Part shown: piece after piece, positions 5,755-29,478 of the stretch
Layout: every line of letters begins with the position of its first letter
How positions within the stretch are numbered: position 1 is the stretch's first letter
Source: Usitatibacter sp.
GTDB taxonomy: Bacteria; Pseudomonadota; Gammaproteobacteria; Burkholderiales; Usitatibacteraceae
Length of the DNA: 64,000 nt
Reading direction: 5' to 3'
Assembly (NCBI GenBank): GCA_036271595.1
Contig: DATBAI010000013.1
Span: 7,154-71,153 of the forward strand
Program-made: the position numbers and the translations under genes
Notes under the pieces: generated by a model
Seen by the model: the letters and a program-made list of their open reading frames with translations, nothing else
Told to the model about the DNA's origin: nothing
The model's database searches: none

Positions 5755-5797
5755 TTGACGCGTGTCAAGGCCCGCCCATTCTGCCGCTTTCTATACT
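5755..5797 (+). promoter_or_regulatory. CRP/FNR-family palindrome TTGAC-N4-GTCAA with -10 TATACT (class II geometry) upstream of fhs
   Basis: Perfect palindrome at 5755-5768 and TATACT at 5792-5797; site centre about -41.5 if the TSS is near 5803. Confidence 0.65.
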
Positions 5798-5833
5798 CGG
5801 GGAAAACCCGCTGTTTCCGAGGAGCCCTCCCCC

Positions 5834-7543
5834 ATGGTCACCACCAGCGCCCCCGAGGCGAAGAAATCGGCCGTCCCGAGCGACATCGAGATCGCCCAGC
5901 AGTCGAAGATGCAGCCCATCGCCGAGGTCGCGAAGAAGCTCGGCATCCCCGGGGACGCCATTTCCCCGTATGGGCACTACAAGGCGAAGGTATCGCTCGA
6001 GTACATCGACACGCTGAAGGGCAAGCCCGACGGCAAGCTGATCCTCGTGACCGCCATCAGCCCCACTCCGGCCGGCGAGGGCAAGACCACGACGACGGTG
6101 GGCCTGGGCGACGCGCTCAACGTGATCGGCAAGAAGGCGGTGATCTGCCTGCGTGAGCCTTCCCTCGGCCCCGTCTTCGGGATGAAGGGCGGCGCCGCCG
6201 GCGGCGGTTATTCGCAGGTCGTGCCGATGGAGGACATCAACCTCCACTTCACCGGCGATTTCGGCGCGATCCAGCTCGCGAACAATCTGCTCGCGGCGAT
6301 GATCGACAATCACATCAACCACGGCAACGAGCTCGGCTTCGACGTGCGCCGCATCGCGTGGAAGCGCGTGCTCGACATGAACGACCGGGCGCTGCGCCAG
6401 ATCACGGTCGCCCTCGGCGGGCCGGCCAACGGCTATCCGCGCGAGGACGGCTTCGACATCGTGGTCGCCTCCGAGGTGATGGCGATCTTCTGCCTGTCCA
6501 CCAGCATCAAGGACCTGAAGGCGCGCCTGGGCAACATCGTCTGCGGCTACACCCGGGACCAGAAGCCCATCCTCGCCAAGGACCTCAAGTGCCACGGCGC
6601 CATGGCCGCGCTCCTGAAGGACGCCATCGCGCCCAACCTGGTGCAGACGCTCGAGCATTCGCCGGCATTCATCCACGGCGGGCCCTTCGCGAACATCGCG
6701 CACGGCTGCAACTCGGTGCTCGCCACGCAGACGGCGCTCAAGCTGGGCGACTACGTGGTCACCGAGGCCGGCTTCGGCGCCGACCTGGGCGCCGAGAAGT
6801 TCATCGACATCAAGTGCCGCAAGACCGGGTTGAAGCCCTCGGCGGTGGTGCTCGTGGCCACGATCCGCGCGCTCAAGTATCACGGCGGCATCGAGGTGAA
6901 GGAGCTGGGCAAGCCCAACCTCGAGGCGCTCGCCAAGGGCATCACGAACATCGAGCGCCACGTGAGCAACATCCGCAACAACTACGGCCTTCCCTGCGTG
7001 GTGGCGATCAACCATCGCACCGAGGACACCGATGCGGAAATCGCGATGCTCCAGGAGAAGATGGCGCACCACGGCGCGAAGGTGATCCTCGCCCGCCACT
7101 GGGCCGAAGGCGGCAAGGGCGCCACCGATGTCGCGAAGGAAGTCGTGCGCCTTTGCGAGGAGCCCAGCAACTTCAAGTACGTCTACGAGGACGCGGCGCC
7201 GCTCTGGGACAAGATGAAGGCGATCGCCACGAAGATCTATGGCGCTTCCGACATCAGCGCGGATTCCAAGGTACGCGCGCAGATCAAGAAGCTGCAGGAG
7301 TCGGGCTACGGCCACTACCCGGTGTGCGTGGCGAAGACGCAGTACTCGTTCTCGACGGATCCGCAGCTTCGCGGCGCGCCCTCGGGCCACGTGGTGAACG
7401 TCCGCGAGGTGCGGCTCGCCGCGGGCGCGGAGTTCGTCGTGATGGTTTGCGGCGACATCATGACGATGCCGGGGCTTCCGAAGGTGCCGTCGGCCGTGAA
7501 CATCGACGTGGACGACAGCGGGAAGATCACCGGGCTCTTCTGA
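5834..7543 (+). CDS. fhs: Formate--tetrahydrofolate ligase
   Basis: [70 protein letters not shown]. Confidence 0.97.
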
Positions 7544-8787: not shown

Positions 8788-10005
8788 ATGCCCAGGTCAG
8801 GAGCCGAGTGGAGCGCCCCACCGAAGTTTCCGGCGACGCACTACGTCGATTCGCGCATCTACAGCGACCCCGGTATTTTCGAGGAGGAGCTGGACAAGCT
8901 CTTCCGTCCCGCGTGGATCATCGCCTGCCACGAATCCGAGATCCCGAACGCGTTCGACTACCGCCTCTTCAATCACCCGGCGGGCGTGCCGCTCATCATC
9001 GTGCGCGGCGACGACCTGAAGGTGCGCGCGTTCTACAACATCTGCCCCCACCGCGGCAACACCATCCTCTACGACCCGGCCGGCAACGCGAAGCGCATGA
9101 CCTGCATCTTCCACCAATGGTCGTTCGACGTGCGCGGCAACTGCGTCGACATCTCGCGGGCCGAGCAGGGCTACCAGGATCGTTTCTGCAAGGCCGACGC
9201 GGGGCTGCGCGAGGTCAAATGCGAGATGGCGTTCGGCGGATTCGCGTGGGTGAACCTGGACGACGCGAGCGTGACGCTGAAGGAGTTCATCGGCCCCTCG
9301 CTGGACATCCTCTCGCCCTACATGGTCGAACCGATGGAGGTATTCCACTTCAACCGCGCCGTCGTCGACACCAACTTCAAGCTGTGGCACGACACGAATA
9401 GCGAGTTCTATCACGACTATGTGCACTACTTCAATCGCATCACCGGCATGATGCAGCCCGGCTACTTCGAGCGCAGGTACACGGGCTTCCCGAACGGCCA
9501 CGCGACGGTCGGCTCGATGCAAATCCAGTACGACAAGTACGAGGGCTCGAAGGAACGCGCGGTCGGCTGGCCCGGGCTTACGCCCGGTGGGTGGTACATG
9601 GTCGACCTCTTCCCGGGGATGACGTACAACCTGCGCACCTCGGTGCTTCGCATCGACACCGCGATCCCGTTGGGGCCCAACAAGGTCGCGATCGAGTTTC
9701 GCGGGCTGGGGTTGAAGAGCGACACGCCCCAGCAACGCGCGCAACGCATCTTCGACCACAACACGATCTGGGGCCCGTTCGGCCGCAACCTGCACGAGGA
9801 CCTGCTCGCGGTCCACGGCCAGGGGCGCGCCATGCGCGAGCGCACCGACAGCCGCTGGGTGATCCACGGGCGCGAGGAGAACAACACCATCCATGACGAG
9901 GTGGGAATGCGCCACTTCTATGCCGAGTGGACCCGGCGGATGGGACGCCCGTCCTATGCCCCGATGAGCGAGAACCCGCCGAACCCGGCGCGCGCGGTGG
10001 CGTGA
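8788..10005 (+). CDS. msmA: Rieske oxygenase alpha subunit, methanesulfonate monooxygenase-like
   Basis: RBS AAGGAG; CPH-x17-CIFH Rieske motif; EFYHDYVH and HEDLL mononuclear-Fe ligands; operon context. Confidence 0.8.
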   Translation: MPRSGAEWSAPPKFPATHYVDSRIYSDPGIFEEELDKLFRPAWIIACHESEIPNAFDYRLFNHPAGVPLIIVRGDDLKVRAFYNICPHRGNTILYDPAGNAKRMTCIFHQWSFDVRGNCVDISRAEQGYQDRFCKADAGLREVKCEMAFGGFAWVNLDDASVTLKEFIGPSLDILSPYMVEPMEVFHFNRAVVDTNFKLWHDTNSEFYHDYVHYFNRITGMMQPGYFERRYTGFPNGHATVGSMQIQYDKYEGSKERAVGWPGLTPGGWYMVDLFPGMTYNLRTSVLRIDTAIPLGPNKVAIEFRGLGLKSDTPQQRAQRIFDHNTIWGPFGRNLHEDLLAVHGQGRAMRERTDSRWVIHGREENNTIHDEVGMRHFYAEWTRRMGRPSYAPMSENPPNPARAVA

Positions 10006-10469
10006 GCGAGGCGATGGAACAACGACATCAGATCGAAGAGCTGGTCTACCGCTCGTGCCTTGCCCTCGACGACCAGGATTTCAAGGCCTTCCTGGAGCTG
10101 TGCGATCCCGGGTTTCGCTACACGGTGACGGCGTACAGCCCGGAGATCCGCAAGGAGATGACCTGGCTGGACCACGACAAGGCGGGCATGGAGACCCTCT
10201 TCACGCAACTGCCGCGGCACAACAGCGACCACTCGCCGCTCACGCGCCACGCGACCGTGTACACGGTGAAGGTCGACGGCGGCGAGGCGGAGGTGGTGTC
10301 GGCGCTGCAGGTGTTCCGCACCACCCTCGACGGCGGCACGACCGAGCTCTATACCGTTGCTCGCCTGGTCGACACCGTGAAGCTCGATGGCGCCGCTCCC
10401 AGGCTCGTGCGTCGCCACGTGCGGATGGGCACCCGCGAGCTCGGCTTCGGCACGCACATCCCGTTTTGA
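10002..10469 (+). CDS. msmB: Oxygenase beta subunit, MsmB-like
   Basis: LVYRSCL.LD..DF..FL.LC, AYSPEIRKEM.WLDHD; GTG overlaps the msmA stop (alternative ATG at 10014). Confidence 0.8.
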   Translation: MSEAMEQRHQIEELVYRSCLALDDQDFKAFLELCDPGFRYTVTAYSPEIRKEMTWLDHDKAGMETLFTQLPRHNSDHSPLTRHATVYTVKVDGGEAEVVSALQVFRTTLDGGTTELYTVARLVDTVKLDGAAPRLVRRHVRMGTRELGFGTHIPF

Positions 10470-10483
10470 GCGATCCACGCTGC

Positions 10484-11512
10484 ATGCGCATCCAGGTGAA
10501 CGCCCGCAACCGCGCCTTCCAGTTCGATGCGCTCCCGGGCGAGAAGATCCTCTATGCGGGCCTCAGGGCGCAGGCCGCGCTCCCCTACGAGTGCGCCACG
10601 GGCACGTGTGGAACCTGCAAGGCGCGCCTGGTCGAGGGACGCATCGAGGATGCGTGGCCCGAGGCCCCGGGGCGCAAGTTCCTGAAGGCCGATCGCGGCG
10701 AATTCCTCATGTGCCAGTGCTCGGCCCAGGGCGACCTCGCGATCGAGGTCGCGAGCTTCGTTCATCCGGCCGATCCCGGCGAGTCCCGGGTGGGGCATGT
10801 CGGCGGCTCGGTGCGCTCGGTGCGGCCCCTCACGCACGACGTGAGCGCGGTCGAGGTTACGCTGGACGCGCCGTGCGAATTCGAGGCCGGGCAGTTCATG
10901 GCGGTGAGCGCGCCAGGGGTCGTGGGCATGCGCGGCTACTCGATGGTGAACTTCGAGCAGCCGGCGCGGCGCCTGGACTTCGTGGTGAAGAGGAAGCCCG
11001 GCGGAGGTTTCTCCGAGTGGCTCTTCTCCGGCAACGCGGTTGGCGCGCGCCTGGAAATGTTCGGTCCGCTCGGCAAGGCGACCTTCCATCCGTCGGCGGG
11101 CAAGAACATCCTGTGCATCGCCGGCGGCAGCGGCATCGCCGGGATGATGTCGATCCTCGGGCGCGCCGCGGCCGCGGGCTGCATGGAGCGGCACGACTTC
11201 CGCGTCTTCTTCGGCATTCGAACCTTGCGCGACGCGTTCTTCCTTCAGGAGCTCTCCGCGTTCGCGAAGGCGCAGGTCACGATCGCGTTGTCCGAGGAAG
11301 ACGTTCCCGAGCTCGTCTCGAAACAATGGCCCGGCCTGCGCTTCGAGCGCGGCCTGGTGCACGAGGCCGCGAAGCGGGCCATGGCCGGGCGATACCAGGA
11401 CGTGCGCGCTTACCTCGCGGGCCCCCCACCGGCGGTGGAGGCGTCCATCCGCGTGCTGCTGCTGGAGGCGAAGCTCACCGCCGATTGCATCCGTTACGAC
11501 AAGTTCAGCTGA
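10484..11512 (+). CDS. msmD: Oxygenase reductase (plant-type 2Fe-2S + FAD/NAD domains), MsmD-like
   Basis: CATGTCGTC...C cluster motif, RGYSM FAD motif, GGSGIAG NAD motif, YLAGPP, terminal DKFS. Confidence 0.8.
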   Translation: MRIQVNARNRAFQFDALPGEKILYAGLRAQAALPYECATGTCGTCKARLVEGRIEDAWPEAPGRKFLKADRGEFLMCQCSAQGDLAIEVASFVHPADPGESRVGHVGGSVRSVRPLTHDVSAVEVTLDAPCEFEAGQFMAVSAPGVVGMRGYSMVNFEQPARRLDFVVKRKPGGGFSEWLFSGNAVGARLEMFGPLGKATFHPSAGKNILCIAGGSGIAGMMSILGRAAAAGCMERHDFRVFFGIRTLRDAFFLQELSAFAKAQVTIALSEEDVPELVSKQWPGLRFERGLVHEAAKRAMAGRYQDVRAYLAGPPPAVEASIRVLLLEAKLTADCIRYDKFS

Positions 11513-11515
11513 GCG

Positions 11516-12244
11516 ATGGCCAGACGAATGATCTGCCGAACCAGCGAGGTGCCGGCCAACGGGTTGAAGGAGTGCGAGCTGGATGGGGGCATGAAGCTGC
11601 TCGTGGCCAATTCCGGGAGCGAATACTTCGCCGTGCAGGCCACGTGCCCGCACCAGGAGGTTGCGCTCTGCGAAGGGATGTACGACGGCAACGTCCTCAC
11701 CTGCCACCAGCACTTGTGGCAATGGGACATCCGCACCGGCGCGGCCATGGGCATGGCGGAGGCGCCGCTCGAGCGCTACGACGTGAGCGTCGAGGGCGAT
11801 GCGATCTACGTCGGCGCGCAGGGCGCGCTCAACGTGGGCGAGCTCTTCAGCGGCATCGGGGCCGCGACGCTCGAGGCGCTGGCACGGCTCGCGCGTCGCG
11901 AGGAGTTCGCGGCGGGGCAGGCGCTCTACGGGCCCGGCGACCGCGCCGACGATTTCTTCGTGCTGGAGTCGGGCCGCGTCGAATTCCGGCTCGGCCGCGG
12001 AGAGAACGCCAACCCCGCGGGGTTCATGCTGAAGAAGGGCGAGGTCTTCGGATGGGCGGCGCTGGTAGACGGGCATTCGCAACGCATCGCGAGCGCGCGC
12101 GCCCTCGAGGATTCGGCGCTGCTGCGGGTGAACGGCAAGCAGGCCCTGCAGCTCCTCGAATCGGATCCGGCCTCGGGATTCATCGTGATGCGCCGGCTCT
12201 CGGCGCTGATCGCACGCTTCCTCGCCGACGCGGGGGCGAAGTGA
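11516..12244 (+). CDS. msmC: Rieske ferredoxin (MsmC-like) fused to a C-terminal cNMP-binding-fold domain
   Basis: CPH-x16-CHQH in the first ~105 aa; then GDRADDFFVLESGRV..GEVFGWAAL..RIASA; no HTH. Confidence 0.75.
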   Translation: MARRMICRTSEVPANGLKECELDGGMKLLVANSGSEYFAVQATCPHQEVALCEGMYDGNVLTCHQHLWQWDIRTGAAMGMAEAPLERYDVSVEGDAIYVGAQGALNVGELFSGIGAATLEALARLARREEFAAGQALYGPGDRADDFFVLESGRVEFRLGRGENANPAGFMLKKGEVFGWAALVDGHSQRIASARALEDSALLRVNGKQALQLLESDPASGFIVMRRLSALIARFLADAGAK

Positions 12245-12304
12245 TGGGAATGTCGATGTGAAGTTCCATTCGTGACTCAAAACGATAACGGAGGAGGTCG
12301 GACC

Positions 12305-13453
12305 ATGAACAAGGCGTTCAAGTGCTTCGCTGCCGCGGCGATGGTTTCAATGACGATTGCCGCGCCGGTAGCTTTCGCAAAGGACTACGGCAAGGTCGGC
12401 GAGCCGGTGCACCTCGTGATCGGCTACCAGCCCTACTACACGCAGGCCTGGTCGGCGGTGATCCAGAAGGAGATGAAGCCGTGGGAAAAATACCTTCCCA
12501 AGGGCTCCACCGTCGACTGGGAGGTGGGCCTCCAGGGCGCCATCGTCGGTAACGCGATGCTCGCCGACAAGAACGACATCGGCTACATGGGCGACATGCC
12601 CACCATCGTCGCGATCAGCAAGCGCGAAATCCGCGAGCTGCGCATGGTGGCGGTCCTGGGCCTCGCCAACGACCAGTGCAGCGTCTTCCTTTCGCGTAAC
12701 GAGGCGCCGGACTTCAAGACGCCCGAAGAGGCGATCAAGTGGTGGAACGGCAAGCGAATCGCCGTCGCGAAGGGCAGCTGCACCGACCGCAGCGCCCAGG
12801 AGGCGATGCGCAAGTACAACATCAAGCCGGAGCAATACCTGAACCAGAACATCGAGGTGCAGACCTCGAACTTCAAGGCGGGCCGCCTCGACGGCTCGAT
12901 CGTGTGGGAGCCCACCGCCTCGAAGATCGTGATGGAAGGCATCGCCAAGCGCATCGCCGACACCAAGGTGATCGGCAAGCTGGACGGCGGCTTCATGGCC
13001 ATGCAGGAGGAGCTGATCAAGCAGCGCCCCGACGTGGTGAAGGCCTGGCTCGAGGCCGAGCTCGACGCGGACCTCTATTGGTCCAAGCCCGAGAACTACA
13101 TGAGTGTCGTCGAGATGGCCCACAAGAACGCCCAGGGCTTCAGCAAGGAAGAGCTCTGGATGGCGATGGCGGGCAAGTATCCCAAGAGCATGGGCGGGGG
13201 CGACGTGCGCAACATCATGTACTACGGCATCAACGACGATGTGCGCAACATGATGAAGGACGAAGTCACGTTCCTGCACGAGATCAAGATCCTGCCGATG
13301 GCCGAGCTGCCGGCCGACCTCGTCGATTCGAGCTGGACCGACGAGATCCTCAAGCGCCGTGGCCTCAAGGTACCGCTCGCCAAGATCGTGGCGCAGGACC
13401 CGTCCAAGTATCCCGGCGGGAAGATCCAGCTCCCGGCGTCGTGGCGGGAGTGA
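12305..13453 (+). CDS. msmE: ABC substrate-binding protein, MsmE/SsuA-like
   Basis: RBS GGAGGAGG, signal peptide, IGYQPYYT, GLQGAIV.NAMLA, GYMGDMP. Confidence 0.75.
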   Translation: MNKAFKCFAAAAMVSMTIAAPVAFAKDYGKVGEPVHLVIGYQPYYTQAWSAVIQKEMKPWEKYLPKGSTVDWEVGLQGAIVGNAMLADKNDIGYMGDMPTIVAISKREIRELRMVAVLGLANDQCSVFLSRNEAPDFKTPEEAIKWWNGKRIAVAKGSCTDRSAQEAMRKYNIKPEQYLNQNIEVQTSNFKAGRLDGSIVWEPTASKIVMEGIAKRIADTKVIGKLDGGFMAMQEELIKQRPDVVKAWLEAELDADLYWSKPENYMSVVEMAHKNAQGFSKEELWMAMAGKYPKSMGGGDVRNIMYYGINDDVRNMMKDEVTFLHEIKILPMAELPADLVDSSWTDEILKRRGLKVPLAKIVAQDPSKYPGGKIQLPASWRE

Positions 13454-13489
13454 TGCCGGCGTATTCCCACCCGGGAGGCCGGACGCGCC

Positions 13490-14365
13490 ATGGCTAGCAC
13501 TCGCATGACTTCCGGCGGGGAGATCGGTGCATGGGAAATGTTCCTGTACCGATTCTCCAAGTGGCTGCGCAGCCCCAGGCCCTACCTGATGGTCCTGGGG
13601 TTCGTGCTGTTCTTCGGCGCGTGGTTCCTGCTCTCGGAGGTGTTCAAGGTGTGGCGCTTCGCGAGCCTGCCCGGCCCGCGCCAGGTGCTGCACGAATGGT
13701 TCAGCCGCAATCCGGTGTACGGCATGTCGCTGTACACGCCGGATTACTACATGCACATCGGGATGAGCGTGCGGCGGGTGCTCTATGCGTTCGTGATCTC
13801 GACCTGCCTGGGCGTGCCGTTCGGCCTCTTCCTCGGCTGGTCGAAGAACTTCCGCGACTTCACCTTCCCGGTGTTCGAGACGCTGCGGCCGATCCCGGTG
13901 CTCGCGTGGGTGCCGCTCGCCATCGTGATGTTCCGCGCCGACGAGACGCCGGTGATCTTCCTCACCACGCTGGCGTCGTTCTACGCGACGGCCCTCAACA
14001 CCATGCTGGGCGTGCAATCGATCGACGAGTCCTACCCGCGCGCCGCCGCCTGCCTGGGCGCGAGCCGGTGGCAGATCTTCCGCCATGTCATCGTCCCCGG
14101 GGCGCTGCCGTTCATCTTCACCGGGTTGCAGATTTCCGTGGGTGTGGCCTGGTTCTCGCTGGTGGCCGCGGAGATGGTGTCGGGCGAATACGGCCTGGGC
14201 TACCTCATCAACAGCTCCTACGTGAACGTCCAGTACCAGGTGATCATCATCGGCATGATCTCGGTGGGCATCGTGGGCTATGCGAGCAGCGCGCTGGTGC
14301 GCCTCGCGGGCGACTACCTGATGCAGTGGCGGGTGCGCGAGCTGGCGCTGGGAGCCGGGCGATGA
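13490..14365 (+). CDS. msmF: ABC permease (nitrate/sulfonate family)
   Basis: LRPIPVLAWVP and EAA-type loop RAAACLGASRWQIFRHV. Confidence 0.75.
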   Translation: MASTRMTSGGEIGAWEMFLYRFSKWLRSPRPYLMVLGFVLFFGAWFLLSEVFKVWRFASLPGPRQVLHEWFSRNPVYGMSLYTPDYYMHIGMSVRRVLYAFVISTCLGVPFGLFLGWSKNFRDFTFPVFETLRPIPVLAWVPLAIVMFRADETPVIFLTTLASFYATALNTMLGVQSIDESYPRAAACLGASRWQIFRHVIVPGALPFIFTGLQISVGVAWFSLVAAEMVSGEYGLGYLINSSYVNVQYQVIIIGMISVGIVGYASSALVRLAGDYLMQWRVRELALGAGR

Positions 14366-15228
14366 ACGCACCGGACCTGGTCGCGGCCTCGCCTTCGGCG
14401 CAGCACGCGGCCAAGGGCGCGATCCGAATCCAGAACGTCGACAAGCGGTACTACGCGCGCGAGGGCCAGGTGCAGGCGGTCTCCGACTGCACCCTGGACA
14501 TCCGCGCCGGCGAGATCTGCATGATCGTGGGGCCGTCGGGCTGCGGCAAGACCACGCTGCTGAACGCCATCGCGGGGTTCCACGACATCACCGGCGGCGC
14601 GATCTACCTCGACGGGCAGATGCTGTGCGGGCCCGGCAAGCCCAAGGCCGAACCGGGTCCCGACCGGGTCGTGGTGTTCCAGAACGGGGCGCTTTTCCCG
14701 TGGAAGACCAACCTGGAGAACGTGGCCTTCGGCCCCGTGGTCCAGGGACGGTTGAGGAAGAAGCAGGCGGCCGAGAAGGCGCGCGGCATGATGGCGGACG
14801 CGGGGCTCGCGGGCGTCGAGCACAACTATCCCGGCGAGATCTCCTCGGGCATGCGCCGGCGCGTGGAGATCGTGCGCGCGCTGATGAACGACCCGAAGGT
14901 GCTGCTGCTGGACGAGCCGTTCCGCGCGCTCGACTCGCTCACCAAGTCGGTGATGCACGAGGCGCTGCTCGAGATCTACTACAAGAACAAGGTCACGACG
15001 TTCTTCATCACCCACGACCTCGAGGAAGCGATTTTCCTGGGCCATCGCGTCGTCATCATGACGACGCGGCCTTGCCGCCCCAAGTTGATCCTCGAGGTGG
15101 ATATCCCGCATCCGCGCAACTACAGCGTGCTCACCAGCCCGCGGTTTCGCGAGCTGATGGAGGAGACGGTGAACGCGGTGCACGAAGAGGCGGTCAAGGC
15201 CTTCGAGGCCGGCGAGAAGGAGATGTGA
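14362..15228 (+). CDS. msmG: ABC ATPase 1
   Basis: GPSGCGKTT, deviant signature ISSGM, LLLDEPF, ITHD. Confidence 0.8.
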   Translation: MNAPDLVAASPSAQHAAKGAIRIQNVDKRYYAREGQVQAVSDCTLDIRAGEICMIVGPSGCGKTTLLNAIAGFHDITGGAIYLDGQMLCGPGKPKAEPGPDRVVVFQNGALFPWKTNLENVAFGPVVQGRLRKKQAAEKARGMMADAGLAGVEHNYPGEISSGMRRRVEIVRALMNDPKVLLLDEPFRALDSLTKSVMHEALLEIYYKNKVTTFFITHDLEEAIFLGHRVVIMTTRPCRPKLILEVDIPHPRNYSVLTSPRFRELMEETVNAVHEEAVKAFEAGEKEM

Positions 15229-16064
15229 TGAGCGCCGCCATCGCCACCGCGGTTCGCCCGATCGCGCGCCCGCGCCAATCCATCTTCCGCAACCGCGTCG
15301 TGCGGGCGGTGATCTCCATCGCGTCGTTCGTCATCCTTTGGGAGATCGGGTCGCGGCTCAAGCTGCCATGGGTGGGCGACGTGCCCGCGCCCACCGTCGT
15401 GATGAAGGCGTGGGTGCCGCTGCTGCACGACCCGGGATACTGGTACAGCTGGTACCAGAGCTCGCGGCGCGTGCTGACCGGCTTCGTCGCGGCCATGCTG
15501 GTCGGCATCCCGCTCGGCCTCGCGATGGCGACGAGCCGCGTCTTTCGCGACATCACGTTCCCGGTCTTCGAGATCCTGCGGCCGGTGCCGCCGCTCGCAT
15601 GGGTGCCGGCGGCGATCATCTTCTGGCCGACGCAGGAGCTCTCCATCGGCTTCGTGATCTTCCTCGGGGCCATCTTCACCATCATGCTGAACGTGATCGG
15701 CGGCGCACGCTCCATCGACGTGCGCTTCTTCCAGGCGGCCCGCTCCATGGGCTCTAGCAACTGGGACATCTTCCGGCGCATCGTCCTGCCGGGCGTGCTG
15801 CCCTCGATCGTGGTCGGCTGCGAGGTCGGCATCGGCATCACCTGGAACGTGGTCGTGGCCGCGGAGATGATCTCGGGGGGCGGGGGCGCGATCCAGTCGA
15901 GCGCCGGCGGCGGCCTCGGATTCTTCATCTGGAGCTCGTACATCGGCGGCTCCTATCCGCTGATCGTCGTGGGCATGATCAGCATCGGCATCGCGGGCTA
16001 CATCTCCAGCGCCATCATCCGGCGACTGGGCATGCTGGTGATGCCGTGGGTGAGGGTGCGATGA
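15228..16064 (+). CDS. msmH: ABC permease 2
   Basis: LRPVPPLAWVP, QAARSMGSS; ATG overlaps the preceding stop. Confidence 0.75.
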   Translation: MSAAIATAVRPIARPRQSIFRNRVVRAVISIASFVILWEIGSRLKLPWVGDVPAPTVVMKAWVPLLHDPGYWYSWYQSSRRVLTGFVAAMLVGIPLGLAMATSRVFRDITFPVFEILRPVPPLAWVPAAIIFWPTQELSIGFVIFLGAIFTIMLNVIGGARSIDVRFFQAARSMGSSNWDIFRRIVLPGVLPSIVVGCEVGIGITWNVVVAAEMISGGGGAIQSSAGGGLGFFIWSSYIGGSYPLIVVGMISIGIAGYISSAIIRRLGMLVMPWVRVR

Positions 16065-16945
16065 GCGTCGCCCCGGCTCCCGGCGGCAAGCTCGCCGCCT
16101 CCATCAAGCCGAGCGAGATGCGCATCGCCAACGTCTCCAAGGGCTATGGCGATGCGCGCTTCCGTACCGAGGTCGTGCGCGACTGCTCGTTCGTCATCGA
16201 GCGAAGCAAGCTCACGGTGATGATCGGTCCGTCGGGATGCGGCAAGAGCACGCTCATCCGGCTGCTGGCGGGATTCGAGAAGCCCGACAGCGGCAGCATC
16301 ACCCTGAACGGCGTGCCGGTGACGGGGCCGGGCCGCGACCGCCTGGTGCTCTTCCAAGAGTCCGCGCTCTTCCCGTGGATGAACACCTGGGACAACACCA
16401 TGTACGGGCCGCGGGCGCGCGGAGAGGCCACCGCCGAGAACCGCGACATGGCGGAGTTCCTGCTGAACAAGGTCGGCCTGGGACAGTTCCGCAAGAAGTA
16501 CCCGACGCAGCTCTCGGGGGGGATGCAGCGGCGCGCCGAGCTCGCGCGCGCCATGATCAACAACCCCGCCGCGATGATCCTGGACGAGCCGTTCCGCGGC
16601 CTCGACGCCATGACCAAGGAGCTCATGTGGGAGTACTACTCGCGCCTCTTCGAGGAGACGCGGCGCACCAATTTCTTCGTGACCACGGACATCGACGAGG
16701 CGATCTTCCTCGCCGACCGGCTGCTGATCATGTCGAACATTCCCTGCCAGGTGCGCGCGGTGCTCGACATCGACATTCCGCGGCCCCGGCGCCTCGTCGC
16801 CATGGTGGAGAACGACCGCGCCAACGAGATCAAGATGAGCGCGCTCTCGATCCTGCACGAGGAGGCGATGAAGTCTTTCTCCCGGGGGAGCAAGGCGGCG
16901 GCGGACTTCGTCGACGCCTACTCCCGGCGGGTCGCCAAGGGCTGA
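16061..16945 (+). CDS. ABC ATPase 2 (H-loop His replaced by Thr)
   Basis: GPSGCGKST, LSGGM, MILDEPF, VTTD. Confidence 0.85.
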   Translation: MSVAPAPGGKLAASIKPSEMRIANVSKGYGDARFRTEVVRDCSFVIERSKLTVMIGPSGCGKSTLIRLLAGFEKPDSGSITLNGVPVTGPGRDRLVLFQESALFPWMNTWDNTMYGPRARGEATAENRDMAEFLLNKVGLGQFRKKYPTQLSGGMQRRAELARAMINNPAAMILDEPFRGLDAMTKELMWEYYSRLFEETRRTNFFVTTDIDEAIFLADRLLIMSNIPCQVRAVLDIDIPRPRRLVAMVENDRANEIKMSALSILHEEAMKSFSRGSKAAADFVDAYSRRVAKG

Positions 16946-16973: not shown

Positions 16974-17837
16974 ATGAGCGCGATCGTGATCGACGGCAAT
17001 GCCATCGCGCGCGAGGTGCGCGCGCAGTGGAAGCAGCGCGCCGACCGCCTGAACGCCCATGGCTGCGCGCCCGGCCTCGCGGTCATCATGGTGGGTGACA
17101 ATGCCGCCTCGGCCGTGTACGTGGCCAACAAGCTGCGCGCCTCCGCCGAGATGGGCATTCGCTCGGAGCGCTTCCTCTACCCCGCGGACGCGCCCGAGGG
17201 CCTGGTCCTCGACTGCATCCGCGCGCTCAATGCCGACCCCGCGATCCACGGCATCCTGGTGCAGTTGCCATTGCCACCGCACATCTCGGTGCGCAAGGTC
17301 CTGGAGACCGTCTCGCCCGACAAGGACGTGGACGGCTTCCATCTCTACAACGTGGGCGGCCTCGTGGCCGGGGGCACGGTGTTCCCGCCGTGCACGCCTT
17401 ATGGCGTCATGTGCATCCTCGACAAGACCGGCATTCCCGTGACCGGGCAGAACGTCACGGTGGTGGGCGCCTCGAACGTCGTGGGGAAGCCCCTGGGGCT
17501 CATGTTCCTGCAACGCGAGGCGACGGTGGCGATCTGCCACGTGAAGACGCGCGACCTCGCGCAATTCACCATCGCCGCCGACATCCTGGTGGTGGCCGCG
17601 GGGCATCCCAACCTGGTGACCGCACCCATGGTGCGTACGGGCGCCGTGGTGATCGACGTGGGCATCAACCGCCTTCCCGACGGGCGCCTGCTGGGCGACG
17701 TCGAGTTCGAGACCGTGCGCCAGAAGGCTTCGTACATCACGCCGGTGCCTGGCGGCGTGGGGCCGATGACCGTGACGATGCTCCTCTGCAACACCATCGC
17801 TTCCGCGGAGCGCTTCCACCAGGCGCGCGCGGCCTGA
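16974..17837 (+). CDS. folD: Bifunctional methylene-THF dehydrogenase/methenyl-THF cyclohydrolase
   Basis: HGILVQLPLP, KDVDGFH, PCTP, VGAS.VVGKP, DVGINR, ITPVPGGVGPMT. Confidence 0.96.
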   Translation: MSAIVIDGNAIAREVRAQWKQRADRLNAHGCAPGLAVIMVGDNAASAVYVANKLRASAEMGIRSERFLYPADAPEGLVLDCIRALNADPAIHGILVQLPLPPHISVRKVLETVSPDKDVDGFHLYNVGGLVAGGTVFPPCTPYGVMCILDKTGIPVTGQNVTVVGASNVVGKPLGLMFLQREATVAICHVKTRDLAQFTIAADILVVAAGHPNLVTAPMVRTGAVVIDVGINRLPDGRLLGDVEFETVRQKASYITPVPGGVGPMTVTMLLCNTIASAERFHQARAA

Positions 17838-17847
17838 CGGGAAGAAC

Positions 17848-18738
17848 CTAGCCGGGCAGGGGCGCCGCCCGCGGCCGAAGCCGCTCGCGATCGTAGAACG
17901 GGAGCTCGGCCACGCGTGCGCGCCGGTCACCCGCGCGCACCTCGCTGCCGATGACGGCCTCGGGCGCGACAAACCCCAGCGCCAACGCCTTTCCGAGAGT
18001 CGGCGACAAGCATTCGCTGGTGATCGCCGCAGGCGGAAGCTCGGCGCCTGGGCGGCCCTCGAGGATCTCGAGCCCCGCCAGCCGGCGGCGCAGTGCGAAA
18101 CGCGTACCGCCATCGACCAGCCGTTCGAGGCCGAGCTCACGGGGATTCGCCTCGCCGTCCACCTCGCGATCGAAGAGCACGTAACCCGCCTCGATGCGAA
18201 GGCTGTCCGCTGCAGCCCAGCCGCACTCGCGCAGCCCCTCGACGCGCCCGGCCTCGAGTAGCCGGCGCCTCAGCGCGTTTACCTCATCCGCGGGGACCAG
18301 CAACTCGTATCCCAGCTCGCCGCAGTAGCCGATGCGGGCCACGATGATTTCCTGCACCTCGGTGAAGCGGAAGTAACGCAGCGCCGCCACGGCGTCGCGG
18401 CCGATGAGGCGTGCCAGCACCGTGCCGCTCGCCGGCCCCTGCAGCGCGAGGATTGCGAGCTCGCCCGAACGGTCGCGCCCGCCGTAGGCCGCGCGCTTGC
18501 CCGCGAATAGCCAGTAGCGCCGCGGCCCGCGCCGCCACACCGTGGCGTCGATGCGCACCGCCCCATTCGGCGCGAGAAGGAGCGTGTAGGCGATCTGGCC
18601 GATTTCCAGCCCCGTCAGGTCGCGGCTCTGCAGCGCCTGCAGAGCCTCGGCATCGTCGAACTCGTAGTGCCCCATGAACGAAAAGTCGAAGAGGCCCACG
18701 CCTTCCCGCACGGCGAGATGCTCCTCGGCACTGCTCAA
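17848..18738 (-). CDS. Stand-alone, shortened GcvT-family (folate-binding aminomethyltransferase-like) protein
   Basis: EEHLAVREGVGLFDFSFMG, RIGYCGELGYEL, DSLRIEAGY; TTG start overlaps the tauE stop (start inferred). Confidence 0.75.
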   Translation of the reverse strand: MSSAEEHLAVREGVGLFDFSFMGHYEFDDAEALQALQSRDLTGLEIGQIAYTLLLAPNGAVRIDATVWRRGPRRYWLFAGKRAAYGGRDRSGELAILALQGPASGTVLARLIGRDAVAALRYFRFTEVQEIIVARIGYCGELGYELLVPADEVNALRRRLLEAGRVEGLRECGWAAADSLRIEAGYVLFDREVDGEANPRELGLERLVDGGTRFALRRRLAGLEILEGRPGAELPPAAITSECLSPTLGKALALGFVAPEAVIGSEVRAGDRRARVAELPFYDRERLRPRAAPLPG

Positions 18739-19484
18739 ATGGCGCGAACCAGCATGAAGAGCCCGACCACGATGCAAAGGCCCGCGGCCATGCGCCGCAG
18801 CACCACCATGCTCACCGCATGCGCGGCCCGGGTACCGAGCGCCACGCCGATGAGGGAGAGCGGCGCGACCCAGGCCGCGGTGAGGAAGTCGATCGAGCCG
18901 AACTGCAGGTTCCCGGCCGTACCCGACACGGCGACCACGATCTGCAGCACCTGGCTCGCGCCGATGGCTTCGAGCGGGACGAAGCCCAGCGCCATCATCA
19001 ACGGCACGGCGAACACGGGCCCGCCCGCGCCCGAAAGGCCCGAGCCGAAGCCGGCCGCCGCGCCGACGCTCGCGAGGAGCACCTGCTGCGCGGCGCCGCG
19101 GCCGGTTCGGTACACACCCTCGGCACGCCGCGACGGGAGCATCACGTAGAGTCCCGCGAAGACGATGATCGAGGCGATGATGAGGGTGAGCAACCGCGGC
19201 TCGACGTAGGAGTTCACCATCGCGCCGATGTAGCTGAAGATCACCGAGCCCACGCATATCGGCACCGTCAAGCGCCACTGGATCGAGCCGCGTACGTAGA
19301 AGAGCCACGTGCCGAGGACCCCGGTGAAGATGAACGTGAAGAGCGCGGTCGCGCTGGCGCGGTGGATGTCCATCCCGCCAAGGATCGCGAGCGCCGGGAT
19401 GGCCAGCACGCCGCCCACCCCGACCGAGCCGATGAAGAAGCCCACCACCGCGGCGACGACGGCGAGGAGCGCGGTCGCGGCCAT
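18735..19484 (-). CDS. TauE/SafE family sulfite exporter
   Basis: GSVGVGG.LAIP and GLSGAGG.VFAVP glycine motifs, about 8 TM helices. Confidence 0.85.
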   Translation of the reverse strand: MAATALLAVVAAVVGFFIGSVGVGGVLAIPALAILGGMDIHRASATALFTFIFTGVLGTWLFYVRGSIQWRLTVPICVGSVIFSYIGAMVNSYVEPRLLTLIIASIIVFAGLYVMLPSRRAEGVYRTGRGAAQQVLLASVGAAAGFGSGLSGAGGPVFAVPLMMALGFVPLEAIGASQVLQIVVAVSGTAGNLQFGSIDFLTAAWVAPLSLIGVALGTRAAHAVSMVVLRRMAAGLCIVVGLFMLVRAI

Positions 19485-19491
19485 CGCGTGC

Positions 19492-19944
19492 TCAGCCGGC
19501 GGCGAGGATCACGAGCTCGCTGGTGAGGAGCACCGCCAGCCTCTTCATGACGCCGAAGCCGAGGTCGGTGTCCTCCTCCATGAGCTGCGTGAGGGCGGCT
19601 CCGTTGATCGCGAGGACCTCGCATGCGGTGAGGCAATACGCGGTGGCGATGCGCCGCGTGTGCCCCTCGACCAGCGGCGCCCAACCGAAGACGTCGCCGC
19701 GCCGGATGATGTCGCCGGCCGCGGTATCGCGCTTGGACAGGCCGAGCGTGAACCTCACCATGCCGTCGGCGAGCACGTAGAAATTGTCGACCGCGTCACC
19801 TACCGTGTAGATGCGCGTGTCGGCCTCGAACGAGCGCGCCTGGGCAAGCGCGGCGATGTGCTCGAGCTGCGAAGCGTGCAGGCCCGAGAAGAACCGCGCC
19901 TGCGAGAGGATGGCGCGCGCGTCGAGGGAGCTGACGGAGCTCAA
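19492..19944 (-). CDS. Stand-alone cNMP-binding-fold protein (FGW variant)
   Basis: GDAVDNFYVLADGMV..GDVFGWAPL..RRIATA; TTG start overlaps the panB-like stop. Confidence 0.8.
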   Translation of the reverse strand: MSSVSSLDARAILSQARFFSGLHASQLEHIAALAQARSFEADTRIYTVGDAVDNFYVLADGMVRFTLGLSKRDTAAGDIIRRGDVFGWAPLVEGHTRRIATAYCLTACEVLAINGAALTQLMEEDTDLGFGVMKRLAVLLTSELVILAAG

Positions 19945-20846
19945 CCGGCGCTACCGGCCTTGCGCGGCTTCGCCATCAGCTGCTTGAACTTCGCAAGCTC
20001 ATCCTCCTTCATGAACACGGTGTGCTCCTTGCCGGGATAGGCGCGCGAGCGCACGTCGTCGCGGTAGTCGGACAGGCCCTTTTCCATGATCGGCACCAGG
20101 TCCACGTACATCTTCGAATGGCGCGGCGTGTGCGCCTCGTACAAATGGAAGAGGTCCGAGCCGATGATATGCACGCCGTGCGCGCGGTTGCCCGCGCCCA
20201 GGCTGATGACCGGGACCGGAAGCGTCTCGGCCAGGTGCTCGCAGACTTCGGACGTGGTCACCTCGCACAGGATCGAGAAGCAGCCGGCATCGACCATCGC
20301 CCAGGCGTCGTCCACCAGCTCCTTGGCGCGGTCCGCGGTCTTGCCCTGCGCGAAGAAGCCGCCCAGCTGCGCCATGCGCATCGGCGTGATGCCGATGTGG
20401 CCCTGCACGGGGATGCCCGCCTTCACGATCGCCTCCATGTACTTGGCATGGTGCTGGTTGCCCTCGCACTTCATCACTTCCGCGCCGCCCTGGGAGACGT
20501 ACTTCGCGGCATTGTCGACGGCTTGCTGTGCGGAAAGGTGGAAGCTCATGTACGGCATGTCGACCATGCGCAAGCCGTACTTCGAGCCGCGCTTCACGGC
20601 CTGGGCCATGAACATCACCTCCTCGAACGATACCGAGGTGGTGTTTTCGTGCCCGAAGAGCACCATGCCGCCGGTGTCCGAGACGCACAGGATGTCGACC
20701 CCGACGCGGTCCGAGATGATCGCGGTCTCGTAGTCGTAGACCGCGAGCTGCACGATCGGGTCGCCCTTCTTCATTTTCTCGACAAGCTGGGGAATCGTGA
20801 CTTTCTTGCGTGCCGGCGCGGCGGCCGCGGGTTTCTGCTCGGACAT
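19941..20846 (-). CDS. panB: Divergent ketopantoate hydroxymethyltransferase (PanB) homolog
   Basis: YDY, VSDTGGM (vs VGDSLGM), DMPYMSF, KCEG, GHIGITP, SILCE, SLGAG. Confidence 0.7.
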   Translation of the reverse strand: MSEQKPAAAAPARKKVTIPQLVEKMKKGDPIVQLAVYDYETAIISDRVGVDILCVSDTGGMVLFGHENTTSVSFEEVMFMAQAVKRGSKYGLRMVDMPYMSFHLSAQQAVDNAAKYVSQGGAEVMKCEGNQHHAKYMEAIVKAGIPVQGHIGITPMRMAQLGGFFAQGKTADRAKELVDDAWAMVDAGCFSILCEVTTSEVCEHLAETLPVPVISLGAGNRAHGVHIIGSDLFHLYEAHTPRHSKMYVDLVPIMEKGLSDYRDDVRSRAYPGKEHTVFMKEDELAKFKQLMAKPRKAGSAG

Positions 20847-20882
20847 CCAGGTCTCCTCGGTTGGTTTTCTATCCCGTACTGC

Positions 20883-20986
20883 TTGTTAACAATTCGGCAG
20901 GACGATTGCAAGTCCCGGAAGGCATTGCGTGCATGCATGGGGCACTGGCGCGTTTCCGTGGGAAACGAGAGGTTCGCGCGGAAACA
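20883..20986 (-). promoter_or_regulatory. Putative sigma70 promoter (TTGCAA-17-TAACAA) of the panB-like operon with upstream tandem palindromes
   Basis: -35 at 20911-20906, -10 at 20888-20883; perfect CGTTTCC-N3-GGAAACG at 20951-20967 and a degenerate copy at 20970-20986. Confidence 0.5.
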
Positions 20987-20995
20987 TCGCGGGGG

Positions 20996-22366
20996 TCATC
21001 CGGCGCTTCGGCGGACGCGCTTCAGCCCCCATTGGCGCCGCCGGGTCCAGAGCGCCTTGCGCCCGATACCGAGCATGCGCGCGAGCTCGGCTTCGCTGCG
21101 CGTGTCCTGGAACCGCTCGACCACCTCGCGGATGTACTCCTCGATGGCGAGGGGCGGCGTGTCGCCTTGCGCGATGGGCGCGGCCCGCACCATGGGCAGC
21201 GCGGGGGCGACCTCCGCGAGGTCGCGGCCGGTGAGCACGTCGCCCTCCGCGAGGATCACGGCGCGCTCGACCAGGTGCTCGAGCTCGCGCACGTTGCCCG
21301 GCCACGAATGGTGCTCGAGGAAGGAGGTGAACTCCGGGTCGAAGCCGCGCACGCTCTTGCCGAGCTTGCGCGAGTAGCGCTCGGCAAAGTGGCGCGCGAG
21401 CGTCAGCACATCGGCGCCGCGATCACGCAGCGGCGGCAGCGTGATCGAGATCACGTTGAGGCTGTAGTAGAGCTCCTGCCGGAATGCGCCCTTCGCGACC
21501 GCGCCCTCGAGGTCCCAGTGCGTGGCCGCGACGAAGCGCACGTCGGCGGCGTAGGTGCGGCCTTCGCCGAGCGAGCGGGCCACCTTGTCCTGCAACACCC
21601 GCAGCAGCTTCGCCTGGAGGGCGGCGGAGAGCTCGGTGATCTCGTCCAGGTAGAGGGTGCCGCCGTGCGCCTCGCGAATGAGCCCCTCGCGCGCGTCCGG
21701 GCCGCCCTGGCGCCCGAAAAGCTCCGCCTCGAGCAGGGCGGGGGCGAGCGCGCCGCACTTGACCGGCACGAAGGGACCGGCCGCGCGCGGCCCGCGCGCA
21801 TGCAGCGCGTGCGCGAGGAGCTCCTTGCCCGTGCCGTACTCGCCGGAGAGCAGCACGTTGGCTTCGGACTTCGCGGCCTTGCGCATGCGCTCCAGCGCCT
21901 TCTGCATCCCGGGGCTCTCGCCCAGGATCGGCCGGCTCGCGTAGGCGCTCTGGAGCGTTCGCCGCAGCGCCGCGTTCTCGCGGCCCATGCGCCGTTCCTT
22001 CAGCGCGCGCTCGACCGAATGCAGCAGCTCTTCGTTGTCGAACGGCTTGATGATGTAGTCCACGGCGCCCGCGCGCAGCGCCGCTACCGCGCTCTCCAGC
22101 GAGGAGTAGCTGGTCATCATGATGATCGGGAGCGTGCGGTCCTTCTCGTGGATGAGGCGCACCGCGTCCAGTCCGGTGCCGTCGGGAAGCTTCAGGTCCG
22201 TGATCACGACGTCGTGGTCCCCGGCCGCGATGCGCCGCAGGCCTTCCTTCACCGAGGCGGCGGAATCGACCCGGTAGCCCTCGCTCGAGAGGAGGAGCGC
22301 CACCACCTCGGAGACGCCCGGGTCGTCCTCGATCACGAAGATGCGCTCGCTGCGGGCGGTGGCCAT
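20996..22366 (-). CDS. NtrC/CbrB-like response regulator (REC-AAA+-HTH) lacking the GAFTGA loop
   Basis: IEDD/TD/KPF receiver residues; GEYGTGKE; ELFGRQGGPDAREG; LYLDEI; WPGNVRELEH; C-terminal HTH. Confidence 0.85.
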   Translation of the reverse strand: MATARSERIFVIEDDPGVSEVVALLLSSEGYRVDSAASVKEGLRRIAAGDHDVVITDLKLPDGTGLDAVRLIHEKDRTLPIIMMTSYSSLESAVAALRAGAVDYIIKPFDNEELLHSVERALKERRMGRENAALRRTLQSAYASRPILGESPGMQKALERMRKAAKSEANVLLSGEYGTGKELLAHALHARGPRAAGPFVPVKCGALAPALLEAELFGRQGGPDAREGLIREAHGGTLYLDEITELSAALQAKLLRVLQDKVARSLGEGRTYAADVRFVAATHWDLEGAVAKGAFRQELYYSLNVISITLPPLRDRGADVLTLARHFAERYSRKLGKSVRGFDPEFTSFLEHHSWPGNVRELEHLVERAVILAEGDVLTGRDLAEVAPALPMVRAAPIAQGDTPPLAIEEYIREVVERFQDTRSEAELARMLGIGRKALWTRRRQWGLKRVRRSAG

Positions 22367-27448: not shown

Positions 27449-27927
27449 CAGTAGTACACGCCTTTCTTCAGCTTGAGGCCGGCGTCCTCGAGCGTACGCA
27501 GGCCCCCTTCGTCCATGCGAATCCACTTCGGCTCGTTGTACAGCAGCTGGCCGTCGCGTTCCGCCTTGCTGGGCGCGGGAACGTCCGCGAGCTTCGGGAT
27601 CGCCGTTCCCCAGGGCTTCGTGGTGATGGGCGACAGGAAGTTCTTTTCGGTGCCGTCGCGGAACTTGATCTTCCAGGCGATCGTGCCCTTGCGCTCGTCG
27701 CGGTCGACCCGGACGCTGTGGCCGAGCGGGGCGAAATCGGCATATCCGCGCACGTCGATCGCATGCTGGGGGCAGGCCTTCACGCAGGAGTAGCACTCCC
27801 AGCACATGTTCGGCTCGATGTTGTAGGCGCGCCGGTAGATCGGATCGATGTGCATGATGTCGGAGGGGCAGATGTCGACGCAGTGTCCGCATCCGTCGCA
27901 CCTCGTCATGTAGACGAAGGTAGGCAT
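27448..27927 (-). CDS. aprB: Adenylylsulfate reductase beta subunit
   Basis: MPTFVYMTRCDGCGHCVDICP; CWECYSCVKACP; VRGYADF. Confidence 0.97.
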   Translation of the reverse strand: MPTFVYMTRCDGCGHCVDICPSDIMHIDPIYRRAYNIEPNMCWECYSCVKACPQHAIDVRGYADFAPLGHSVRVDRDERKGTIAWKIKFRDGTEKNFLSPITTKPWGTAIPKLADVPAPSKAERDGQLLYNEPKWIRMDEGGLRTLEDAGLKLKKGVYY

Positions 27928-28864: not shown

Positions 28865-29371
28865 CTATAACACCTTGATGTCGAACGACATGGTGGCCAG
28901 GTCGGCGAGGATCCAGGTCGCCGGCGCAGCCAGCCCCGCCACCGTTCCCGGGTTCACGAGCCACGTGGTGCCACCCTTCACGTTGTCGACCTGGCGGGCC
29001 TCCGCGCGGTGCGAATGGCCGCAGCAGACGAGCTCCCAGTCGCCGGTGCAGGCCATCGCGTAGCCGTGGTGGTCGTAGTGGACGACGACCATGCGGCGCC
29101 CGCCCAGCTCGAGGGTCGCCTCCGCGCCATGGTATTGGAGCAGGCCGCCGCTCTTGCGGGACTGGAAGTGCATCGCCTGGGCATCGCCCAGGTTGTTGCC
29201 GTGGATCGCGTGCACGGGCAGCCCCGCGGCCAAGGCGGGCTTCATCGTCTGCGCGCCGATCAGGTCGCCGCAATGGATGACCGCCTCGGCGCCCAGCGCC
29301 TTTGCCGCCTCCACCGCCTGGGCCAGGGGATCGGCACGATCGTGGCTGTCGGAGACGATGCAGATCTTCAC
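28865..29371 (-). CDS. Metallophosphoesterase (YfcE-like)
   Basis: SDSH, HCGD, HGNN, GHSH and NPG motifs; GTG start. Confidence 0.85.
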
Positions 29372-29478
29372 CGAGCCATTATCGAGCAAGCCGTCGCGGG
29401 CCTCAATCGAGCCGCTTTATCGGCTCATCAGGAATATCGGGCTTGTCACCCCGGCGGGGTGCGAGGTCCAATTGCGCC

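Follow-up and report, generated by a model that had tools for sequence, protein, structure and literature searches.

The 64,000-nucleotide stretch analyzed here (the window; positions 7,154 to 71,153 of contig DATBAI010000013.1) comes from a 3.9-Mb metagenome-assembled genome of Usitatibacter sp. (GCA_036271595.1; 92% complete). It carries genes of a putative methanesulfonate (MSA) catabolic module, among them genes for an MsmABCD-type oxygenase, the folate enzymes FolD and Fhs, and a 296-residue relative of the glycine cleavage T protein, GcvT. We refer to the last of these as the gcvT-like gene, and find that it encodes a shortened, conserved paralogue of GcvT that may pass the C1 unit of MSA to folate metabolism. 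The gene stands at the end of a minus-strand operon (panB-like, cyclic-nucleotide-binding (cNMP) domain protein, TauE, gcvT-like), tail to tail with folD. Its start is a TTG at 18738, which overlaps the TGA stop codon of TauE as a TTGA motif and is the only start that preserves the family-invariant residues E6 and H7. A longer minus-strand open frame reaching up to 19308 was rejected as an Arg-rich, out-of-frame reading across TauE.

An earlier note on this DNA, made from the sequence alone, had described a GcvT-like open reading frame of ~296 codons that lacks its N-terminal segment, converges with folD and has no gcvH or gcvP nearby. All of this was confirmed: translation, Pfam and alignment agree on the shortened frame, the stop codons of the gcvT-like gene and folD lie 10 nt apart, and neither gcvH nor gcvP occurs on the contig carrying the window. 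The canonical gcvT-gcvH-gcvP operon of the host genome is found elsewhere, on contig C49, which makes the gcvT-like gene of the window an additional paralogue. Contig C2 has a further, weaker GCV_T match that is probably YgfZ-like.

Both Pfam domain models and a three-domain cloverleaf fold place the protein in the GcvT superfamily. Pfam GCV_T aligns with residues 4-206 over profile positions 30-254 of 255 (E-value 3.5e-49; 167.8 bits, cut-off 25.6), and GCV_T_C with residues 238-283 over profile positions 30-80 of 80 (29.9 bits, cut-off 25.9). AlphaFold2, supplied with a 65-sequence alignment, returned a model with a mean predicted local distance difference test score (pLDDT) of 96.3 and a predicted template modeling score (pTM) of 0.91. 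When this model was compared with known structures by Foldseek, TMq scores were 0.85-0.89 for sarcosine oxidase alpha (SoxA), 0.83-0.84 for dimethylglycine oxidase (DMGO) and dehydrogenase (DMGDH), 0.80-0.84 for GcvT (PDB 1YX2, 1WOO, 3A8I, 1WSV) and 0.81 for DmdA, with lower values of 0.57-0.66 for YgfZ and Iba57. The best sequence matches in PDB were GcvT proteins (E-value 5e-40), and trimethylamine N-oxide (TMAO) demethylase (Tdm; PDB 9Q5A) matched at 1.6e-30.

The protein nonetheless falls well below the curated thresholds for GcvT (119.4 bits against 235.85 for TIGR00528, and 152 against 300 for NF001567), both of which are passed by the host genome's own GcvT (397.6 and 462.1 bits, respectively). 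It likewise misses the thresholds for DmdA (NF009133; 58.8 bits against 410), LigM (28 against 580), DesA (34 against 800), Tdm and SoxA, and one long-form orthologue, of the kind described below, is also below every one of these NCBIfam thresholds. A protein atlas returned GCV_T clusters only, and a plasmid collection held only generic GcvT relatives of at most 32% identity, with no member of the family.

We aligned the protein with E. coli GcvT and with the host's own GcvT. The canonical first ~31-35 residues are absent, such that the gcvT-like protein begins at approximately residue 32-35 of E. coli GcvT, and in the window's subgroup a domain-2 helix has in addition lost ~15 residues and the linker preceding domain 3 another ~14. 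The short form is widely shared: among 1228 database relatives, the best 120 have 65-82% identity to it, measure 285-308 residues, cover 93-100% of the query and have a common start. For more than 100 homologues of equal length, E-values ranged from 1.5e-186 to 1e-113, far beyond chance.

Orthologues extracted from 80 genome loci showed three architectures, namely proteins of ~350-385 residues with an arm of ~30 residues that aligns with the canonical GcvT N-terminus, proteins of ~330 residues with a 9-residue stub, and armless proteins of 292-324 residues. In a maximum-likelihood tree rooted with the host genome's own GcvT, the armless proteins (n=31) formed one clade nested among arm-bearing forms (Shimodaira-Hasegawa-like approximate likelihood ratio test (SH-aLRT) support 94), and the stub proteins formed a separate clade, which includes one arm-bearing member (SH-aLRT 99). 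At least two losses or truncations of the arm have therefore taken place, with the gene itself retained. Most genes of the armless clade have their new start on the TauE stop codon.

Pairwise ratios of nonsynonymous to synonymous substitution rates (dN/dS) against seven relatives were 0.22-0.40, with dS near saturation. The short form is thus under purifying selection and is not an eroded copy. The earlier note had accepted that its interpretation would fall if full-length homologues revealed this copy to be eroded; deeper orthologues are indeed full-length, but the short form constitutes a large clade under purifying selection, and the objection fails.

One metagenomic protein (P0124; 572 residues, 56% identity) joins an armless GcvT-like domain to a C-terminal extension of ~280 residues without a Pfam match, and may be either a genuine fusion or the result of gene miscalling. 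It is one of two singletons that a search for longer, fused forms recovered; neither has a recognizable catalytic domain, the other is an apparent frameshift artefact, and this search gave no Rosetta-stone fusion.

The residues of the folate site can be traced through this shortening. Human GcvT residues M56, D101, Y197 and E204 make up the canonical tetrahydrofolate (THF)-binding set of GcvT, DMGO and TrmE, R233 is a THF-contacting Arg specific to GcvT, and the D101N and D101A mutants are inactive (PMC9551070). We mapped these positions via the E. coli GcvT alignment and counted them over 64 family members. M56, D101 and E204 correspond to M22, D64 and E145 in the window's protein, each present in 64/64 members, and Y197 corresponds to Y138, which is Tyr or Phe in 63/64. 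By sequence alignment, the family thus carries the residues of the THF-dependent branch of the superfamily. The GcvT-specific R233, on the other hand, is replaced by A177 in the window and by Ala, Ile, Thr, Val or Met across the family, with Arg in 0/64.

Further changes are family-wide. F19 and F21, present in 64/64 members, convert the canonical FDVSHM motif to FDFSFM, and W68, G80 (the position of E. coli N113) and R206 (a canonical Trp or Phe) are additional signatures. The Arg of the LRxE motif (R181) is kept, as in GcvT. R39 and R286 match the basic residues at the polyglutamate entrance of Tdm, R480 and K782 (PMC13619132; alignment), and the PFYDP...R tail is shared with the Tdm, DMGO and SoxA group, while the stacking Phe of Tdm, F672, is an Arg here. 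At the residue level, these patterns point to a split, described here for the first time, between a folate site that appears to be retained and a donor side that appears to be remodeled.

In comparison with GcvT (EC 2.1.2.10), the protein therefore shares the cloverleaf, the THF-site Met, Asp, Tyr and Glu and the LRxE Arg, and differs in being ~65 residues shorter, with the H-protein arm, domain-2 helix and linker segments gone, the GcvT-specific Arg replaced, and the gene separated from gcvH and gcvP. The missed thresholds, missing arm, absence of the GcvT-specific Arg and lack of an adjoining gcvH or gcvP led us to reject a canonical T protein. These results support a distinct, conserved GcvT-superfamily paralogue.

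The surroundings of the gene are conserved. Searching 79 usable family loci with the window's proteins by tblastn, we found TauE directly upstream on the same strand in 74/75 loci, a PanB-like gene upstream in 62/62, the gene for the cNMP protein, likewise upstream and in the same orientation, in 57/62, and an msm oxygenase gene at most 10 kb downstream in 32/42. Linkage to the msm-type oxygenase, folD and fhs was thereby traced in ~80 loci. Where 'stub' genomes lack nearby msm genes, msmA was found elsewhere in 4 of 5, in two of them ~20 kb away on the same contig. The family is defined here by its context, and the window's protein has all of its marks: the FDFSFM motif, TauE upstream, a PanB-like gene in the operon and msmA in the genome. 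A pattern scan of metagenomes recovered the family signature in only 5 of 80 loci, one of the patterns being too generic, and all 5 signature-bearing loci have the context usual for the family.

The earlier note had proposed co-occurrence with msmA as a check on its reading, and the two genes do occur together. Among 401 evenly sampled genomes of the order, the gcvT-like gene was present in 17 and a close msmA (at least 72% identity) in 17, with both in 16; these tallies, and those for GcvH below, include one unpublished genome (G026), which is among the 16 with both genes, and the counts are descriptive, since the genomes are related and not independent. The two exceptions are a partial gcvT-like match without msmA (G166) and an msmA alone in a genome that is 84% complete (G075). 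Neither gene was found in nine sampled genomes of the window's own family, three of them of its genus, and both are present in several other families of the order. This patchy distribution suggests that the whole module moves horizontally.

Conservation within the module is uneven, with median identities to the window of 89% (PanB-like protein), 77% (MsmA), 53% (TauE) and 46% (GcvT-like protein), such that the gcvT-like gene is the least and the PanB-like gene the most conserved. The low conservation of the gcvT-like gene would fit better with a folate-presenting helper than with a chemically demanding step. The host genome encodes four PanB-family paralogues. Some related genomes carry two or three msmA paralogues, with a divergent copy (57-61% identity to the window's MsmA) adjoining the GcvT-like gene (for example, G235:C11:32185-33384, G051:C31:7880-9100 and L056:11443-13200), suggesting that the module also serves a second type of oxygenase.

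We also surveyed the carrier genomes for GcvH. A true GcvH is encoded by 18 of 21 carriers; two of the others (G343 and G401) have only weak lipoyl-domain matches, and no GcvH was found in G031, which is 98% complete. These counts lend weak support to independence from H protein. Many carriers additionally contain tandem pairs of extra GcvH-like genes that do not adjoin the GcvT-like gene (for example, G104:C111:50220-51450 and G404:C19:161599-162854), which presumably resemble the lipoate-binding LbpA of sulfur-oxidizing sHdr systems.

A comparable gene neighborhood has been tabulated in a proven MSA degrader. In Filomicrobium sp. Y, genes annotated as TauE/SafE, 'glycine cleavage system protein T' and 3-methyl-2-oxobutanoate hydroxymethyltransferase lie beside msm (PMC4433239, Table 1), and the sole remark of Henriques and De Marco (2015) on this trio concerns a link to methylotrophic pathways (PMC4433239). 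Orthology with the window's gene is judged from genomic context: the Filomicrobium frame follows TauE/SafE, stands beside a PanB-family gene and msm, and is short (331 residues from the published coordinates). The host there is alphaproteobacterial, the order is TauE, GcvT, PanB, and the regulator is of the LysR type, in place of a two-component system. Our literature search found no paper linking an MSA monooxygenase with an aminomethyltransferase or gcvT, or with hydroxymethanesulfonate. What was already known is the fold, the general chemistry and, since 2015, the place of the gene beside msm; what is new is the derived and repeatedly minimized armless clade, the folate/donor split at the residue level, and the quantitative linkage to msmA.

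MSA ranks among the major intermediates of sulfur cycling in the atmosphere. Its textbook degradation pathway ends at formaldehyde and sulfite, with entry into C1 metabolism left to proceed spontaneously. The carriers tetrahydromethanopterin (H4MPT) and glutathione have formaldehyde-activating enzymes of their own, and to our knowledge no free-standing formaldehyde-activating enzyme for THF has been characterized. We regard it as moderately probable that the gcvT-like protein, independently of H protein, uses folate to capture the C1 unit that the MsmABCD-type oxygenase releases and thereby supplies FolD and Fhs. In this model, the oxygenase would hydroxylate imported MSA to formaldehyde and sulfite, which would appear at first as their adduct, hydroxymethanesulfonate. 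The gcvT-like protein would bind THF in its conserved central cleft and, via D64 and with no need of H protein, form 5,10-methylene-THF from the released C1 unit. FolD and Fhs would then oxidize this C1 unit to formate, and TauE, translationally coupled to the gcvT-like gene, would export the sulfite.

Several observations favor this model. Because the folate site and the catalytic Asp are retained, THF-dependent C1 transfer is the likely chemistry, and for the same reason the family stands apart from YgfZ and Iba57. H protein is argued not to be the donor, as the arm is lost, the GcvT-specific Arg is absent, no gcvH is nearby and a canonical T protein is encoded elsewhere; the N-terminal arm is essential for the T protein to engage H protein (PMC7733448, citing Okamura-Ikeda 1999, 2003). 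Judging by the gene neighborhood, a single donor stands out, the C1 unit from methanesulfonate, and the product has two evident users in FolD and Fhs. Moreover, neither Fae nor Mch, of the H4MPT route, was found in the 92%-complete host genome, and the folate route is therefore the visible path for formaldehyde. Overall, C1 capture as first put forward in the earlier note is supported in part: the folate and catalytic residues are kept, the part that associates with H protein is missing, and the gene is linked to the msm oxygenase, folD and fhs, while folate binding itself, the identity of the donor and product, and the division of labor with the PanB-like enzyme are points that we infer.

A solved precedent exists in TMAO demethylase, whose GcvT-like domain captures tunneled formaldehyde as methylene-THF (PMC13619132). 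More generally, the GcvT-like domains of the Tdm, DMGO/DMGDH and SoxA types convert the formaldehyde or iminium of a neighboring active site to methylene-THF (PMC13619132), and these domains likewise do not need H protein. They differ from the gcvT-like protein in being fused to or assembled with the formaldehyde-producing domain and fed by a tunnel, whereas the gcvT-like protein is free-standing. In its proposed role, namely the acceleration of a spontaneous condensation between formaldehyde and a C1 carrier, the protein would resemble Fae (H4MPT) and Gfa (glutathione), whose folds and carriers are unrelated to it.

Other considerations weigh against this model. Formaldehyde and THF condense spontaneously, so that a catalyst is perhaps unneeded. 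The PanB-like partner also handles methylene-THF and is far more conserved (89% against 46%), and the critical step may be its own. GcvH is encoded by most carriers (18/21), and the long forms could use it. The low conservation of the gcvT-like gene would fit better with a folate-presenting helper than with a chemically demanding step.

A variant of the model, which we consider unlikely though worth stating, makes hydroxymethanesulfonate (HO-CH2-SO3-) itself the C1 donor, with attack by THF cleaving the C-S bond to yield methylene-THF for FolD and sulfite for the adjacent TauE. The protein would then be the small-molecule counterpart of the T protein acting on aminomethyl-S-lipoyl, and arm loss the footprint of a switch from a protein-bound to a free donor. 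In the T protein reaction itself, THF attacks the carbon of an X-CH2-S group, and sulfur departs (PMC9551070). TauE and the gcvT-like gene form the tightest gene pair of the module (74/75 loci, a start/stop overlap in the armless clade, and adjoining genes in Filomicrobium), the donor side is altered family-wide (H to F in FDVSHM, N113 to G, R233 to A), and R39 and R206 are new invariant Arg residues. Furthermore, the adduct has a dissociation constant of ~2e-4 M and breaks down rapidly only at high pH (PMC6459274); by our own estimate it would last minutes at neutral pH. This proposal is purely inferential, however, and the adduct would dissociate spontaneously at micromolar levels. The protein could also be an extra T protein working with lipoyl-H protein, either running glycine cleavage in reverse (methylene-THF, NH3 and CO2 to glycine) to assimilate MSA carbon or running it forward to supply C1 units. 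The clustering of fhs, folD and a T-like gene does recall the folate half of the reductive glycine route, long-form orthologues retain an arm that aligns with the canonical one, and GcvH is frequent among carriers. We nevertheless find this improbable, as the window's clade has lost the H-association arm and another clade has only a truncated one, the GcvT-specific Arg occurs in none of the 64 members, scores lie below the GcvT thresholds that the genome's own GcvT passes, gcvH and gcvP were seen at none of the loci (judged by gene content), and GcvH is missing from the 98%-complete G031.

Three further explanations remain. A folate-independent helper akin to YgfZ and Iba57 (COG0354), keeping the iron-sulfur clusters of the oxygenase intact under formaldehyde and sulfite stress, would share with the gcvT-like protein the superfamily fold (TMq 0.57-0.66), a stand-alone length of ~300-330 residues and independence from an H-protein partner, and the oxygenase does contain several such clusters. 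Yet the pterin-binding Glu and Tyr are gone from YgfZ and Iba57, in which the pocket is constricted (PMC9551070), and the gcvT-like family keeps the Glu and an aromatic residue; GcvT-type proteins match the structure much better, no KGCY-type motif, as expected from the surface Cys motif conserved in YgfZ and Iba57, is present in the 296-residue translation, and the genome has a separate, probably YgfZ-like protein on contig C2, making this role highly improbable. We attach equally little weight to a THF-dependent demethylase resembling DmdA or LigM, with a methylated substrate, sulfur-containing or otherwise, that has no connection to the product of the oxygenase. The superfamily is shared and the DmdA fold is similar (TMq 0.81), but the protein scores far below the respective thresholds (59 vs 410, 28 vs 580 and 34 vs 800 bits for DmdA, LigM and DesA), and an unrelated substrate is hard to reconcile with how strictly the gene accompanies msm, TauE and the PanB-like gene. 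Finally, a decaying remnant of a full-length gene might be expected to look as this one does in some respects, being ~65 residues shorter than the deeper orthologues, starting with TTG and evolving fastest in the module. Such decay is hardly conceivable given the equal length and start in more than 100 relatives, the single armless clade (n=31), the absence of internal stops, a pLDDT of 96, the dN/dS of 0.22-0.40 and the retention of all catalytic residues.

The family offers a small, well-folding candidate of 296 residues with a clear genetic context, by which the question of formaldehyde activation on THF becomes testable. It is also a natural test of how much of the T-protein fold is dispensable once H protein is no longer a substrate. 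If the protein only accelerates a spontaneous reaction, the result is a modest one, and the gene would still be a reliable metagenome marker of MSA catabolic clusters.

The features of the locus are listed in Table 1. By Pfam, the oxygenase components are a Rieske alpha subunit, a beta subunit, a Fer2-FAD-NAD reductase and a Rieske ferredoxin fused to a cNMP domain. The second ATPase of the importer (16046-16945) was named by its cross-matches with the first. A divergent, minus-strand LysR gene lies between fhs and msmA, and genes for an MFS protein, a histidine kinase and a response regulator with a sigma-54-type AAA+ domain lie upstream of the panB-like operon, also on the minus strand. Consensus scans found neither a sigma-70-type promoter across 17600-21200 nor a terminator within the 10 nt that separate the gcvT-like gene from folD.

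Table 1. Genes of the putative MSA module in the window, with strand and supporting evidence.
Feature	Position	Strand	Evidence
fhs, formate-tetrahydrofolate ligase	5759..7543	+	Pfam FTHFS 3.9e-270
MsmABCD-type four-component oxygenase genes	8788..12244	+	Pfam
ABC importer: NMT1-type binding protein, two permeases, two ATPase paralogues	12272..16945	+	Pfam NMT1_2, BPD_transp_1, ABC_tran; tblastn synteny
folD, methylene-THF dehydrogenase/cyclohydrolase	16974..17837	+	Pfam THF_DHG_CYH, THF_DHG_CYH_C
gcvT-like gene, armless minimal folate-binding-superfamily protein, 296 aa	17848..18738	-	translation, Pfam, AlphaFold2, residues
TauE/SafE-family exporter (sulfite or anion)	18735..19484	-	Pfam TauE 1.3e-37
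Free-standing cNMP-binding-domain protein, 150 aa, operon member	19492..19944	-	Pfam cNMP_binding 2.5e-15
PanB-like (ketopantoate hydroxymethyltransferase family), operon gene 1	19941..20846	-	Pfam Pantoate_transf 1.5e-79

Two observations concern the wider metabolism of the host. RuBisCO_large gave a single weak partial match in the genome, like that of a RuBisCO-like protein. A few kb from the module, the window encodes an AprA-like flavoprotein (FAD_binding_2 and Succ_DH_flav_C; 25580-27901, minus strand) and an ATP sulfurylase (29281-30651, plus strand), which together are consistent with oxidation of sulfite via adenosine 5'-phosphosulfate as an alternative to its export.

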